IMG/VR virus record: IMGVR_UViG_2657245448_000003
Location: 1 to 4,261 of that record
Length of the DNA: 4,261 bases
Origin: a virus
Taxonomy: Duplodnaviria > Heunggongvirae > Uroviricota > Caudoviricetes
Direction: 5' to 3' (one strand)
Shown here piece after piece: positions 1-4,261 of this stretch. The notes under the pieces are model-generated. The model ran no database searches and had not been told where the DNA came from. It worked only from the letters and a program-made list of their open reading frames with translations. The position numbers were made by a program, and so were the translations under genes. The stretch's first letter is position 1; each line of letters opens with the position of its first letter.

Positions 1-2
1 GG

Positions 3-77
3 TACATGGATATGATGTGTGAAGCGCGTGGCGCGGCGGATCTTGTTTCCTCATCAGCGAGGGAAAGAGGGCTTTAA
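3..77 (+). CDS. Possible 3' end of an upstream gene entering the window (frame 3; ...YMDMMCEARGAADLVSSSARERGL*), unknown product
   Basis: Frame 3 is open from the window edge to TAA at 75-77, and that stop overlaps the ATG of the next gene (TAATG). Only about 24 codons are visible, so this may equally be a short spurious frame. Confidence 0.2.
   Translation, partial: YMDMMCEARGAADLVSSSARERGL
59..71 (+). promoter_or_regulatory. Shine-Dalgarno-like purine run (GAGGGAAAGAGGG) serving the 77..412 gene
   Basis: AGAGGG at 66-71 lies 5 nt upstream of ATG 77-79. Confidence 0.4.
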
Positions 78-412
78 TGAAACGGTTATGTTTGGCGTTA
101 GTTATGATGGTTACTGCTCCGGCGATGGCTGCAATTCAGTGCGGCAACTACACGATGACCGGTGACGGAATGACTGTTATTAACGGTGAAACTGTCACAT
201 CACAGAAGATAAAATTTCTGGGAAAAGATGGTGACTATTCAAACATGAAAATGGACATGGGCCTGATGCCTTCCCGTGATGGTAACAATTACGGCTTTGA
301 GTTTGTGAAACGTAACGGAAAAGCTTTCCTGAACGTCCAGCTGCTGCAGAACAGCATGGACGCGCCGAAAATCATTGGATCTTTCCCGTGTAAAAAAGTG
401 AGCAGCAAGTGA
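77..412 (+). CDS. Small secreted (periplasmic) protein of unknown function, 111 aa, with a cleavable Sec signal peptide
   Basis: ATG start with a good RBS. The N-terminus MKRLCLALVMMVTAPAMA-AIQ has a basic n-region, a hydrophobic core and an AxA signal peptidase I site. The mature part has Cys22 and Cys105 and is rich in G, N, D and K. The context before C22 (A-I-Q-C) does not resemble a lipobox. The stop overlaps the GTG start of the next ORF (GTGA at 409-412). Confidence 0.7.
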   Translation: MKRLCLALVMMVTAPAMAAIQCGNYTMTGDGMTVINGETVTSQKIKFLGKDGDYSNMKMDMGLMPSRDGNNYGFEFVKRNGKAFLNVQLLQNSMDAPKIIGSFPCKKVSSK

Positions 413-921
413 CAGTTGATGATGATCCTTTGAATTCATTTCAAGACCCTGACTTTCAGGAACTTCTCGGCGGAATTGATATTACTCTTGTTATAAGGTT
501 TTTTAATTATTTTTCGCGTTTCGAATATGCGTTAAAAAGAATTAATTTCAAAAAAACTGATCGTAGAAATTATCTAATCGGTGCTGACTGGAGCCGCTAC
601 GCTACTGATGATACGCGGCCTTTATATCCTACTGGAAATAGAAATGTCGATAGGGCAGTTGAGTATCTATGTCAGCAACCTGTGAAGCAGCAGAGGCATG
701 ATTTTTCGTGGGAGGATAAACCTCCAATCGAACCTCATTCTCTTGCTGAAGCATTAAAGCAGATCCCGTATATAAGAAATAATCTCTTTCACGGCGGGAA
801 GTATTTACGTCCCGCCCCCGTTCGTGATGAAAAGTTATTGAAATACTCTATTTATTTGATGCAGTTGTGTTTGATAACTGATAATCAGCTTTCTGAATAC
901 TTTAATACTATCCACCGATAG
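409..921 (+). CDS. AT-rich accessory ORF, 170 aa, hypothetical protein with a HEPN-like R-x4-H motif (IRNNLFHGGKY, codons at 772-801); candidate RNase toxin or abortive-infection protein
   Basis: It is the only long open frame on either strand across 409-921. The GTG start at 409 overlaps the upstream stop (an alternative in-frame TTG is at 430), and there is no in-frame ATG until near the 3' end. From about 481 the composition turns strongly AT-rich, with many AGA, AGG and ATA codons, unlike the flanking genes. R123-N-N-L-F-H128 fits the HEPN consensus R-x(4-6)-H with a polar residue after the Arg. An intrinsic terminator follows the stop. The functional call is inference from the motif only. 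Confidence 0.5.
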   Translation: MTVDDDPLNSFQDPDFQELLGGIDITLVIRFFNYFSRFEYALKRINFKKTDRRNYLIGADWSRYATDDTRPLYPTGNRNVDRAVEYLCQQPVKQQRHDFSWEDKPPIEPHSLAEALKQIPYIRNNLFHGGKYLRPAPVRDEKLLKYSIYLMQLCLITDNQLSEYFNTIHR

Positions 922-937
922 TCATTCTTCATGAGAT

Positions 938-970
938 AAAACCTGCCACCCGGCGGGTTTTTTGCTTTTT
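938..970 (+). terminator. Rho-independent terminator ending the accessory cassette
   Basis: A-tract 938-941; stem CCTGCC (942-947), loop ACCC (948-951), stem GGCGGG (952-957) giving 6 bp including one G-U pair; then TTTTTTGCTTTTT (958-970). It lies 17 nt after the TAG stop at 919-921. Confidence 0.65.
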
Positions 971-974
971 GGAG
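971..974 (+). promoter_or_regulatory. Shine-Dalgarno (GGAG) for the spike gene
   Basis: GGAG sits 7 nt upstream of ATG 982-984. Confidence 0.4.
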
Positions 975-981
975 CCTACCA

Positions 982-1734
982 ATGGCAGTAACTGACCAGA
1001 CCCGCAGTGGCGATCTTGCCGAAACATTTAAATCTGAACGGGAAACAACAAAGAACCAGATCCGTGTCGCCTTGCCTGGCATTATTCAGTCATTCGATCC
1101 TGACGCGGTGACGGCGGTTGTGCAGCCAGCTATCCGGTCAGTTGAAAAGGATAACGACGGTAACCGCATTACCAAAAATTACCCATTGCTGGTGGATGTG
1201 CCAGTGGTATTCCCGCGCGGCGGAGGCTGTACGTTGACTTTTCCGGTAAAAGCTGGGGATGAGTGTCTTGTCGTTTTTGCCGATCGTTGTATTGATTTCT
1301 GGTGGCAGAGCGGCGGGATACAGGAGACGGTTGATGACAGAATGCATGATTTATCGGATGCGTTTTGTATTGTCGGTCCCCAGTCGCAGGCTAGGAAGAT
1401 TAGCGGTATTAATACCAGTGCCACACAGTTGCGTAGTGACGACGGCAGCACCTATTTTGAGCTTAATCCTGATACCAGGAAAATTAAAATTGTCGCTCCG
1501 GGGGGGCTTGATGTGGTTGCCCCCCTGGCTGATTTTTCTGAGAAAGTAACCATTCATGGCCTGTTAACCTGGATGGGGGGCATGGTGGGGTCTGTGGTTT
1601 CTGGTGTGGCTTCAAAAATCACTGGTGCTGTTGAGTTTTTGGGGAGCGTGAAGGCTAACGGCAAGCCAATCGATGATACGCACACTCATGGTGGTGTTCA
1701 GCGCGGTGGAAGCAGTACCGACGGGGTAAACTGA
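982..1734 (+). CDS. Baseplate central spike / baseplate assembly protein (Gp138-N / P2 gpV / Mu gp45-like), 250 aa
   Basis: The N-terminal region (FDPDAVTAVVQPAIRS...YPLLVDVPVVFPRGGGCTLTFPVKAGDECLVVFADRCIDFWW) matches my recollection of the Gp138 N-terminal spike domain. The C-terminal part is Gly/Val-rich and ends with THTH (1678-1689), resembling the metal-binding HxH apex of phage spikes. Position directly upstream of gp46-like and baseplate J-like genes fits. No homology search was run. Confidence 0.8.
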   Translation: MAVTDQTRSGDLAETFKSERETTKNQIRVALPGIIQSFDPDAVTAVVQPAIRSVEKDNDGNRITKNYPLLVDVPVVFPRGGGCTLTFPVKAGDECLVVFADRCIDFWWQSGGIQETVDDRMHDLSDAFCIVGPQSQARKISGINTSATQLRSDDGSTYFELNPDTRKIKIVAPGGLDVVAPLADFSEKVTIHGLLTWMGGMVGSVVSGVASKITGAVEFLGSVKANGKPIDDTHTHGGVQRGGSSTDGVN

Positions 1735-2087
1735 TGCGATACAGACGTGAAGACGCCGATGGCGATTACACCTTTGGCAGCGGTGATGACACCTGGCTGA
1801 TTAACTCACCGGAGGCCGTGGCGCAGGCGGTAAAAACGCGATTCGAATTGTGGTATGGGCAATGGTTTCTCGACACCACCGAGGGGACTCCGTGGATCCA
1901 GTCCGTACTCGGTAAGCAGAAGCCGGAAACCTACAACCTGGCGATCCGTAAGCGCATCCTCGAAACGCAGGGCGTTAAATCAATCCTCTCTTTCAATACG
2001 ACGCTGGATACCACGACCCGACGTGTCATGTTTTCCGCTGAAATCGACACTCTTTATGGAATAACGACTGTTACATCGGAGGCGTAA
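1734..2087 (+). CDS. Small baseplate protein (Mu gp46-like / gpW-gp25-like), 117 aa
   Basis: The size and the position between spike and baseplate J match Mu gp46 / P2 gpW. The start overlaps the upstream stop (ATGA at 1732-1736). The assignment rests on synteny and size more than on a recognised motif. Confidence 0.65.
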   Translation: MRYRREDADGDYTFGSGDDTWLINSPEAVAQAVKTRFELWYGQWFLDTTEGTPWIQSVLGKQKPETYNLAIRKRILETQGVKSILSFNTTLDTTTRRVMFSAEIDTLYGITTVTSEA

Positions 2088-3286
2088 TGGCTCTGAACCT
2101 TGATTCTCTCGGTTTATCTGCAAAGGTAACCGCGGAGGGGATCAGTGCGCCTGATTATCAGACGATACTCAGCACCCTGATTAGCTATTTTCAGCAGATT
2201 TATGGCAGTGATGCCTACCTCGAACCGGACAGCAAAGACGGCCAGATGGTGGCTCTGATGGCGCTGGCGATTCATGATGCCAATAATACTGCGATAACTG
2301 TCTACAACTGTTTTTCACCGGCAACCGGCTATGGGGCTGCACTGACCTGTAACGTGAAAATAAATGGTATTTCACGTAAAGGCGCGACGAACTCTACGGT
2401 TGATTTGCTTCTTACAGGAACTGCCGGAACAACCATCATTAATGGCAGCGTGAAAGACAGTAATAATGTGATATGGCGTTTGCCTGCTTCAGTGGTGGTA
2501 GGCGTGGATGGTACAGTGATGGTGACCGCAACATGTTCCGTCAGTGGTGCAGTGGCGGCGCTGGCTGGAACTATCACTGAAATTAATACGCCAACCCGTG
2601 GCTGGGTTTCGGTAACCAATCCTGCTGCAGCCACTGTGGGCACTCCGGCAGAAACTGACGCTGAGTTACGTATCCGCCAGTCGCAAAGTGTTGCGTTGCC
2701 ATCAATAACCCCATTTGAAGCACTGGATGGTGCTGTTTCTAATGTTACCGGTGTAACCCGCCACAAACTCTATGAAAACGATACTGGTTCGGAGGACGGT
2801 AACGGGTTACCGCCACACTCTGTTGCTGTAATTGTGGATGGCGGTGATGTAACGGATATTGCTCAGGCTATCAGAGGGAATAAAGGCCAGGGGACAGCCA
2901 CTCACGGTACAACATCCGTTACGGTTCCGGATAAATACGGCAATCCCCATGTAATCAAATTCTCGCGTTCCAGTGATGTGCCTGTTTATGCCCTGATTAA
3001 ATTAAAAGTTTTTACGGGTTATACCTCACAGATAGGGCAGCAGATCCAGCAGGCTATTTCCGACTATATCAATAGTCTGATGATTGGTGATTCGGTCCTT
3101 TTAAGTCGCATTTACTCACCGGCGAATCTTGGCGTGGTGAGTGGCGGGAATGCACGCTATTACGATATTCAGGAACTGACGATTGGGAAATCCCCGGGGG
3201 CTTTGTCGTCATCAAACATTGATATCAGATACAACGAATCTGCGTCCTGTACCCCGAAAAATATCGTTATAACGGTGGAGTCATGA
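2087..3286 (+). CDS. Baseplate J-like protein (P2 gpJ / Mu gp47 family), 399 aa
   Basis: A 399-aa protein immediately after the gpW-like gene, with the start overlapping the upstream stop (TAATG at 2085-2089) and GGAGG just upstream. Length and composition are consistent with baseplate J wedge proteins. This is a synteny-based call. Confidence 0.8.
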   Translation: MALNLDSLGLSAKVTAEGISAPDYQTILSTLISYFQQIYGSDAYLEPDSKDGQMVALMALAIHDANNTAITVYNCFSPATGYGAALTCNVKINGISRKGATNSTVDLLLTGTAGTTIINGSVKDSNNVIWRLPASVVVGVDGTVMVTATCSVSGAVAALAGTITEINTPTRGWVSVTNPAAATVGTPAETDAELRIRQSQSVALPSITPFEALDGAVSNVTGVTRHKLYENDTGSEDGNGLPPHSVAVIVDGGDVTDIAQAIRGNKGQGTATHGTTSVTVPDKYGNPHVIKFSRSSDVPVYALIKLKVFTGYTSQIGQQIQQAISDYINSLMIGDSVLLSRIYSPANLGVVSGGNARYYDIQELTIGKSPGALSSSNIDIRYNESASCTPKNIVITVES

Positions 3287-3963
3287 GCAAATACACCGAA
3301 CTAATCACGAACTACCACGCCACCAAACCTAAATTTCTTGCGCATGTTGATCTGATGACCCGGCCACTTATTGATGTTGCGGCTGCCACCAGAGGGCTGA
3401 TTAGTGCATTTGATATTGACTCTGCGGTTGGTGTGCAACTTGACATCCTTGGATTGTGGATCGGACGTAGCCGTGTTGTCAGCCAGCCTATCTCAGGTGT
3501 CTATTTCAGCTGGGATACCGACGGGCTTGGATATGATCAGGGGGTATGGCAGGGACCATACGATCCTGATTCAGGATACATGTATCTCAGCGATGAAACT
3601 TATCGTGTCATTCTTAAAGCGAAGATTGCGATTAATAACTGGGACGGACGGAATGATTCGCTTCCGGCAATTCTTGACGCGGCAACAGCAGGATCCGGGC
3701 TGCGAATGCAGATAGTCGATAACCAGGACATGACGATATCGGTCTGGGTCTTTCCTGATACTGATATTTCAGATGTATCGCGTGAGTTAATTGCGGCAAT
3801 TAAACAGGGGTATCTCACAGTAAAAGCCGCCGGGGTATGGGCGGGTGGCATTGAAACACCTTCGGTGGAAACCCCATCGGAAGGCTCAAAATTTTTTGGT
3901 TTTGATATGGATAACGAATTCATCAGTGGTTTTGATGTAGGAGCATGGGGAGTATTACTCTGA
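3283..3963 (+). CDS. Baseplate/tail protein (P2 gpI / Mu gp48-like), 226 aa
   Basis: Follows baseplate J with an ATGA overlap at 3283-3286 and a GGTGGAG RBS upstream. Its place between J and the tail fibre matches gpI/gp48. The stop overlaps the next start (TGATG at 3961-3965). Confidence 0.65.
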   Translation: MSKYTELITNYHATKPKFLAHVDLMTRPLIDVAAATRGLISAFDIDSAVGVQLDILGLWIGRSRVVSQPISGVYFSWDTDGLGYDQGVWQGPYDPDSGYMYLSDETYRVILKAKIAINNWDGRNDSLPAILDAATAGSGLRMQIVDNQDMTISVWVFPDTDISDVSRELIAAIKQGYLTVKAAGVWAGGIETPSVETPSEGSKFFGFDMDNEFISGFDVGAWGVLL

Positions 3964-4261
3964 TGGCGAAAAATGACTTTAAAGCGTTTGCAACGGATCG
4001 AAATGCCAATGTTATATCGCAGGAGGAATGGGAAGCGTTGCCCGCGCTTTTATCTGGATTTACAGCAGGGAAAGCCTCCAGTGCGCAAGTCAATAAGGTT
4101 ATTCGGCAGGCCAGCTTCATTTTTACGGGGGCGAGAACCGATCGGGAAGTTGATGATCATATGCTCGCCGCGCTGGGCTGCATGGCTGTTATCGTCTTCC
4201 AGAGTATCTGGCGCACCAGCAACATACACCACCGGTTCATCGTGCACGACAGGCGCATCTT
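3963..4261 (+). CDS. Tail fibre protein, conserved N-terminal region (MAKNDFKAFATDRNANVISQEEWEALPALLSGFTAGKASSAQVNKVIRQASFI); frame stays open to the window end but is probably not genuine tail fibre beyond about 4124
   Basis: The N-terminal approx. 53 codons look like the conserved N-terminus of enterobacterial prophage tail fibres (recalled pattern ...ASSAQVNKxIRQxxFI...). After about 4122 the same frame uses rare codons (AGA, CGG, AGG, ATA) and gives an atypical peptide, while the opposite strand shows good codon usage. Confidence 0.5.
   Translation, partial: MAKNDFKAFATDRNANVISQEEWEALPALLSGFTAGKASSAQVNKVIRQASFIFTGARTDREVDDHMLAALGCMAVIVFQSIWRTSNIHHRFIVHDRRI
4125..4261 (-). CDS. 3' part of a convergent gene of unknown function running off the window edge (...DAPVVHDEPVVYVAGAPDTLEDDNSHAAQRGEHMIINFPIGSRPR)
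   Basis: The minus-strand frame is open from the window edge and uses typical E. coli codons (CTG, CCG, GAA, GGT, GCG). The six-frame track reports it from a GTG at 4247 running to a stop at 4050, but the frame continues open upstream to 4261. Below about 4125 it overlaps the conserved tail-fibre N-terminus and is probably fortuitous read-through. Confidence 0.3.

Follow-up and report, generated by a model that had tools for sequence, protein, structure and literature searches.

Overlapping genes for an exported protein and a HEPN-like protein are very probably independent neighbours in a hotspot of a prophage baseplate operon

The stretch of DNA analysed here, referred to as the window, comprises 4,261 nucleotides (nt) of a viral record (IMG/VR record IMGVR_UViG_2657245448_000003, positions 1 to 4,261) and is the baseplate module of a temperate Escherichia coli myovirus prophage of the vB_EcoM-606R2/SEN34-like type. 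Between the hub-like and the spike gene of this module lie two small overlapping genes, orfA, the product of which looks like a Sec-exported periplasmic protein, and orfB, which codes for a HEPN-like protein. A preliminary description, made from the sequence alone, had presented the two as a functional cassette. Our analysis indicates that orfA and orfB are very probably independent genes, neighbours in a hotspot that is flanked by the hub and spike genes, and that they adjoin each other because this phage lineage has a single cargo slot next to orfA. The best overall explanation, to which we assign a probability of roughly 0.6, is that of unrelated neighbour genes in a hotspot, with orfB being a solo HEPN abortive-infection RNase and orfA an independent periplasmic protein. 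The features on which the argument rests are the following:

1..77, plus strand: 3' end of the hub-like baseplate gene (354 amino acids, aa; WP_001551483.1, locus 19013-20077), part of the conserved backbone; its stop codon TAA and the orfA start codon ATG overlap (TAATG)
77..412, plus strand: orfA, 111 aa, exported small beta-protein, phrog_3443; in this lineage of prophages, it occupies position 1, behind the hub gene
400..935, plus strand: variable cargo segment, here filled by orfB; left breakpoint after ...GTAAAAAAGT (399/400), right breakpoint just before the terminator stem; empty slots in loci L044, L045 and L105
409..921, plus strand: orfB, 170 aa, probable stand-alone HEPN-superfamily protein, phrog_19013, WP_001551481.1; GTG start
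982..1734, plus strand: membrane-puncturing spike gene with N-terminal spike domain and Apex motif; conserved right flank of the hotspot

Genomes that lack orfB match orfA up to about window positions 396-399, and their similarity to the window sets in again at about 936; the variable segment, therefore, spans positions 400-935. A survey of the 80 best orfA loci revealed that orfA and the spike gene are between 62 nt, which corresponds to an empty slot, and 1501 nt apart. Cargo found elsewhere in the slot includes PD-Lambda-1, an Mrr-type nuclease, a YafO-family toxin together with an upstream gene, a weakly PycTM-like membrane protein, a DUF4282 protein, and further secreted proteins. The commonest cargo, present in 26 of the 80 loci, is composed of a gene for 243-276 aa followed by a HEPN-like gene for 131-154 aa, with overlapping stop and start codons. 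This two-gene module is located around 5000-6350 in L134, L135, L137 and L196, and at 2929-3702 in L002; its HEPN-like protein contains ISRAYY...RNEADYDL and has only a weak PADLOC match, to HEPN_IX. PD-Lambda-1, of which the 411-aa product contains a T5orf172/MUG113 domain (PADLOC E 1e-84), occupies the slot in 11 of the 80 loci (L113 and 10 similar ones), the slot of L079 contains a 275-aa Mrr-type nuclease, and that of L122 the PycTM-like membrane protein. The segment between orfA and the spike gene is a swap-in cargo slot, or hotspot, inside the baseplate operon; no description of such a hub-spike hotspot was found in the literature. In the arrangement we propose, this slot would constitute position 2, with the 3' end of orfA as its left limit and a conserved terminator as its right limit, and would be held by orfB in the present prophage.

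Among 5,426 complete E. coli genomes, orfA relatives are present in 319 and orfB in approximately 26; among IMG/VR contigs, the corresponding numbers of contigs with a relative are 369 and 30. Within the 80 best orfA loci, orfB is contained in three. In a set of 73 loci matched by a hub gene of at least 96% identity, 68 (~93%) possess orfA, two an unrelated 154-aa secreted protein, and three neither of these, one of which (L197), upon examination, was found to have a 241-aa lipoprotein; orfB is present in one of the 73. Overall, 1 to 4% of the lineage members with orfA also carry orfB. As for orfB itself, only the seven closest of 29 viral loci (at least 49% identity) reside in this slot, where they are paired with orfA alleles of 38-100% identity. 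In the vicinity of the other 22, neither orfA nor the hub or spike gene is found. No co-occurrence of the two genes beyond the effect of position was found, with the pairing being seen in none of 76 genome loci of orfB relatives. These loci, which extend across phyla, have no conserved partner among 140 flanking genes, nearly all of which are singletons, the largest cluster comprising two members.

In locus L005, orfB is preceded by the alternative 154-aa secreted protein and by only the last ~17 codons of orfA. A 34-codon open reading frame at 3897-4001, ending ...QKIIGSFPCKKVNH, represents this orfA 3' remnant directly upstream of orfB. The finding suggests that the conserved 3' end of orfA acts as a left homology or recombination arm for cargo exchange.

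Given these distributions, it is very improbable that orfA and orfB constitute one functional module, in which envelope exclusion and abortive infection would operate together or a toxin would be accompanied by its partner. Such a module would be in line with the overlapping stop and start codons and with the adjacency of the genes in seven viral contigs, including a distant relative with 38% identity in orfA and 49% in orfB; this adjacency is, however, imposed by there being only one cargo slot. The 3' remnant of orfA that accompanies orfB in L005 might also be cited for a module, but a recombination arm is its best interpretation. Moreover, orfA is found without orfB in more than 95% of the lineage members, and orfB relatives are mostly found without orfA. 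Unequal identity levels and the pairing of orfB with several orfA alleles point to independent histories, no neighbour is conserved among the orfB relatives in the 76 genomes, and the two products would occupy different compartments of the cell. The functional cassette put forward in the preliminary description is, thus, not upheld by the counts given above; neither is its alternative of a toxin with a partner, considering the lack of a conserved neighbour and that an exported protein cannot neutralise a cytoplasmic toxin. Co-occurrence in other genomes, by which the pairing was to be judged, does exist in the seven viral contigs, but it is accounted for by the single slot next to orfA and does not stand as a sign of a functional link.

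Other parts of that description have held up. Two overlapping open reading frames are present at 77-412 and 409-921, as agreed upon by the scan for open reading frames and the RefSeq PGAP annotation of an identical E. coli prophage. The orfA start is coupled to the upstream hub-like gene, and the orfA stop TGA (410-412) overlaps the orfB GTG (409-411), which aligns with an ATG in orthologues that overlap the upstream stop as TAATG. This tight overlap makes co-translation plausible in this locus, and in that sense the proposed co-expression is supported. Also the idea of a secondary joining of genes of differing base composition is supported, with orfB being placed in the variable segment between conserved flanks and the G+C content amounting to 45.2% in orfA and 38.4% in orfB, as compared with 49.7% in the tail genes downstream and 54.4% in the hub gene; the G+C content at third codon positions (GC3) is 55% for orfA versus 33.5% for orfB. 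As a lesson for annotation, a stop/start overlap between neighbours in a hotspot should not be taken as functional pairing.

The assignment of orfB is based on two conserved motifs:

511..525, plus strand: orfB helix-1 motif F35-S-R-F-E39; E39 invariant in 122 of 122 aligned sequences
775..801, plus strand: predicted catalytic motif of orfB, R123-N-N-L-F-H128-G-G-K131 (Rx4H), from the alignment

The motifs FSRFE...K and RNNLFHGGK are invariant features of the orfB family, and it is the R123-N-N-L-F-H128 portion, invariant across the family, that bears out the earlier designation of orfB as HEPN-like. At the level of single positions, E39, R123, H128 and G129 are invariant in an alignment of 122 diverse sequences in which column identity averages 26%; N124 and N125 are shared by at least 90% of these sequences. 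orfB, thus, conforms to the HEPN pattern Rx4-6H, in which R is usually followed by N, D or H. The AlphaFold2 model of orfB is mainly helical (predicted local distance difference test score, pLDDT, of 91), and a Foldseek search of the PDB with it returned no match. A family profile weakly matches the HEPN region of a Csx1-like CRISPR protein (8y7f), with RNxxxHGG being aligned (E 0.02; 0.13 with a deeper profile). Neither orfA nor orfB gave a significant match in sequence searches of Pfam, NCBIfam, PADLOC and the PDB, no orfA or orfB match to the PADLOC 2.0 family models was obtained at E up to 1, no Pfam, NCBIfam or PADLOC model matches orfB, and the PHROGs matches of both proteins are solely to families of unknown function. 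We take orfB to be, quite probably, a divergent member of the HEPN superfamily.

An exhaustive profile search yielded 2,384 representatives of the orfB family at 50% clustering, nearly all of them 155-185 aa and mostly ~165 aa in length. Relatives are present in the genomes of at least 415 species, ranging from Proteobacteria to Chloroflexota, Planctomycetota and one archaeon. Rare fusions to DUF6884, a YaaA-like domain with predicted nucleic acid binding and base flipping, were observed (P0167, 332 aa; P0178, 650 aa). A 53%-identical relative of the enterobacterial-prophage type is contained in L203, a record titled Chryseobacterium sp. 18061, which may be a case of contamination or of a mislabelled record. 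Close same-strand neighbours of orfB relatives comprise Abi_C, HEPN, HsdS, CAP12-type TIR, Gp49, AbiGi and integrase genes, in addition to ordinary metabolic genes; examples of single contexts are AbiV, TIR, RNase T and Mrr genes in one cluster, a STAND NTPase, and a pair of a helix-turn-helix (HTH) and an M78-peptidase gene. Distant relatives (30-36% identity) were also found inside siphovirus-type prophage tail clusters, i.e., in L022 (2393-3513), L024 (2920-4592) and L283 (3971-4489). Those of L022 and L024 adjoin small lipoprotein genes, and that of L283 (Klebsiella phage ST101-KPC2phi6.1) follows the major tail protein gene and a likely tail assembly gene.

The orfB protein of the window has already been flagged in a machine-learning screen. 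In Table S10 of DefensePredictor (PMC13092281), WP_001551481.1 is listed in the class "Predicted novel defense gene", with a mean log-odds of 9.44 versus a stringent cutoff of 4. The best remote HHblits match given in that study is the HEPN domain of ApeA (coverage 0.28, probability 61.6; PMC13092281). The accession was seen solely in this supplementary table, and a search of the main texts of the literature for the protein accessions gave no match.

Several characterised systems provide the background for a possible function. HepS from the Gifsy-1 prophage of Salmonella is a tetrameric tRNA anticodon nuclease switched on by the tail-tip protein J (PMC13043305; 2026). It resembles orfB in being a single small HEPN protein with an Rx4H motif, encoded by an accessory gene of a temperate phage with no partner gene. 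Tha, an RNase from S. aureus phages, becomes active in response to tail proteins and is restrained by an antisense-encoded inhibitor (PMC11087260; 2024). With orfB it would share a prophage-encoded defence with a HEPN RNase domain and the question of how self-harm to the carrier phage is avoided. Unlike Tha, which has the dedicated inhibitor Ith on an overlapping antisense gene, orfB is not accompanied by any such conserved element; the host phylum and the genome position of the gene are also different. AbiV, AbiU2, AbiD/F and ApeA are likewise stand-alone HEPN effectors on mobile elements; an AbiV-family gene adjoins one orfB relative, and ApeA is the remote match named above. However, orfB reaches none of their Pfam or PADLOC models, is shorter, and has its own FSRFEYALK and RNNLFHGGK signature. 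A classification of orfB as a HEPN-MNT toxin-antitoxin system was also considered and rejected, as orfB is flanked by orfA and the spike gene, with no MNT nucleotidyltransferase gene adjacent to it, and its relatives have no conserved gene of this kind either. On the best reading, orfB joins the known solo HEPN accessory or defence genes of prophage hotspots. Solo HEPN defence proteins of prophages, such as HepS and Tha, have been elucidated only in the last few years; the family of orfB is much larger, extends over many phyla, and is without a Pfam or PADLOC model, and orfB has been picked up as a likely defence gene by the machine-learning approach.

For orfB, an RNase activity, an abortive-infection function, a trigger and an expression timing are inferred, as is any role of orfA. 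By analogy with HepS, Tha and AbiV, orfB would be made in an inactive oligomeric state and would probably stay inactive until infection. Upon infection, two of its Rx4H motifs would be brought together and RNA, either tRNA or RNA in general, would be cleaved; translation would then stop and phage production would be aborted. For orfB being an abortive-infection RNase, the odds appear to be about even.

A number of observations weigh against this function. The structural and profile evidence for orfB as a HEPN protein is modest. About half of the neighbours of distant orfB relatives are ordinary metabolic genes, and WP_001551481.1 is absent from the table of tested units in DefensePredictor (PMC13092281). 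Furthermore, no promoter for orfB was detected: there is no spacer after orfA, and the sole promoter-like site, a 9/12 match inside orfA, is at chance level. Promoter matches in the spacers upstream of other slot cargo genes are similarly weak. Because a visible promoter is lacking and orfB is coupled into the late baseplate operon, it is possibly transcribed only together with the late tail genes, and such late-only expression would fit poorly with a defence protein made in the lysogen. When orfB is compared with a classical moron, which is flanked by a promoter and a terminator of its own, its low G+C content and its location in a variable slot agree, while the terminator belongs to the backbone and a convincing promoter is missing.

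The absence of an own promoter and the translational coupling into the baseplate operon would suit a different reading, in which orfB is the phage's own late lytic-cycle RNase, directed to host shut-off, against satellites or competing phages while its own burst is under way, or against host defences, rather than a defence of the lysogen; the occurrence of orfB relatives inside siphovirus tail modules is compatible with this as well. We regard it as unlikely, since the same slot carries PD-Lambda-1, a validated defence gene, and toxin genes, since most members of the family are found in cellular genomes and defence islands and not in phage late operons, and since orfB is dispensable in more than 95% of the related prophages. 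There is, furthermore, a low probability that orfB plays no part in phage defence, being either a selfish toxin or addiction gene or a HEPN-like protein without catalytic activity. No cognate antitoxin gene is conserved beside orfB relatives, and the window is devoid of a repeat or RNA-antitoxin-like element near orfB (no tandem repeats, no repeats of at least 12 nt, no Rfam match). In addition, the strict invariance of R, N and H argues for catalysis. We retain the solo HEPN abortive-infection RNase as the preferred reading of orfB.

The product of orfA is a different type of protein. Its signal peptide is delimited as follows:

77..130, plus strand: orfA signal peptide, MKRLCLALVMMVTAPAMA, predicted cleavage AMA|A; rule-based, in 45 of 45 homologues; no lipobox

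The Sec signal peptide that the preliminary description had recognised was examined by rule, i.e., for a charged n-region, a hydrophobic h-region and small residues at -3/-1 as required by signal peptidase I, and all of these elements are present in 45 of 45 homologues. The presequences are 17-24 aa long, with a net charge of +1 to +3, a hydrophobic core of at least 2.2 on the Kyte-Doolittle scale, A or S at -1, and A, S, T or V at -3. Mean identity among the homologues is 32% in the presequence versus 73% in the mature part, which is the usual pattern of signal peptides. The bacterial lipoprotein lipobox [LVI][ASTVI][GAS]C is found in none of the 45. The mature part contains exactly two cysteines in all 45 homologues; C22 and C105 are invariant, and a disulfide joining the ends of the mature chain is likely. 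Hence, orfA looks like a Sec-exported periplasmic protein with a mature part of ~93 aa, mostly of beta-strand. Its fold gives no functional clue. The periplasmic lysozyme inhibitors (MliC/PliC, Ivy) were tried as candidates and discarded, there being neither a hit to a family model nor a fold match. As orfA is restricted to prophages and does not belong to the core genes of the host, the concern that it might be a conserved host protein is settled.

In loci that miss orfA, another exported protein is encoded right after the hub gene (L004, 822-1286; L005, 3479-3943; L196, 4568-5029; L197, 4568-5293). These alternative proteins are either the 154-aa protein, which has a signal peptide, or the 241-aa lipoprotein, which has an LTSC lipobox. 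Position 1 of the hotspot is almost always held by orfA or by another exported protein and, thus, seems to be reserved for exported proteins. Because of this occupancy by orfA alleles, the 154-aa protein or the lipoprotein, orfA possibly has a role at the cell envelope, for instance in the exclusion of superinfecting phages.

Proteins with signal peptides are unusual among tail proteins. This is of relevance to the suggestion that orfA is a required morphogenesis or lysis factor of the phage lineage and not an accessory gene, which its presence in ~93% of the lineage members and its invariable direct coupling to the hub gene might indicate. Nevertheless, this is quite unlikely, as some members have an unrelated exported protein instead. 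In the hub-matched loci, orfA can be as low as 54-70% in identity next to a hub gene with 96-98%; orfA itself, therefore, lies on the variable side of a mosaic boundary, and a boundary of this sharpness is typical of accessory genes. An accessory, independent periplasmic protein remains our preferred reading of orfA.

Exported or membrane proteins among tail genes are known from the tail-region morons HK97 gp15 and T5 Llp, which act in superinfection exclusion. The defence hotspots of P2 and P4 phages, as far as the account of Rousset et al. 2022 cited in PMC13043305 goes, are comparable in that conserved flanks surround highly variable defence or toxin cargo. The present hotspot differs from both in its location between hub and spike genes and in the phage lineage. 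For the search for new defence genes in enterobacterial prophages, the hub-to-spike slot is a convenient starting point, given that its cargo already comprises PD-Lambda-1, an Mrr-type nuclease and toxin pairs, together with several genes of unknown nature.

A bolder and improbable extension would see the hub-spike hotspot as a two-layer exclusion locus, with an exported entry block at the envelope encoded in position 1 and a cytoplasmic effector in position 2. Solo HEPN RNases of the orfB type would then be triggered by incoming tail or baseplate proteins, in the manner of HepS and Tha, and would, through their location in the baseplate operon, stay genetically linked to a non-triggering hub or spike allele. 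If this were true, self-immunity would be solved by the position of the gene rather than by an inhibitor.

The right border of the slot lies just in front of a further feature of the operon:

938..971, plus strand: intrinsic terminator consisting of a hairpin (10-bp stem, 4-nt loop) and a T-run; for 938-961, free energy of -19.3 kcal/mol and z = -3.8

This strong terminator lies midway through the tail operon, a short way upstream of the spike gene, and occurs throughout the lineage, including the empty slots (L044, L045 and L105, around 3340-3380). Because it is present also where the slot is empty, it is a feature of the backbone and not of orfB. Late transcription past the terminator presumably needs the Q-type antiterminator of the prophage.

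Window bases 1-4121 are 99.98% identical to a prophage of E. coli WP3-W18-ESBL-08 and 100% identical to induced phages such as vB_EcoM-606R2; more distant relatives are Salmonella phage SEN34 and several Klebsiella phages. The genes are arranged in the order tape measure, Dit-like protein, plug, 354-aa hub-like protein, orfA, orfB, membrane-puncturing spike, sheath initiator, baseplate J, wedge protein and tail fibre. The match to the prophage ends at position 4121 (junction 4121/4122), in the middle of the tail-fibre gene that starts at 3963. The final 140 bases of the window are non-phage and match, at 100% identity, xdhD, a host core gene found in 5,177 of 5,426 E. coli genomes. This means that the window derives either from a truncated prophage that adjoins xdhD or from a contig of chimeric origin.

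In the reference prophage (L001), the region downstream of the tail-fibre gene (24757-26456) contains a second, oppositely oriented gene set, made up of a tail-fibre-assembly gene and a gp53-like fibre-tip gene. This gene set adjoins a truncated recombinase pseudogene and resembles an invertible host-range segment, of the type of Mu G or P1 C, that has been disabled.
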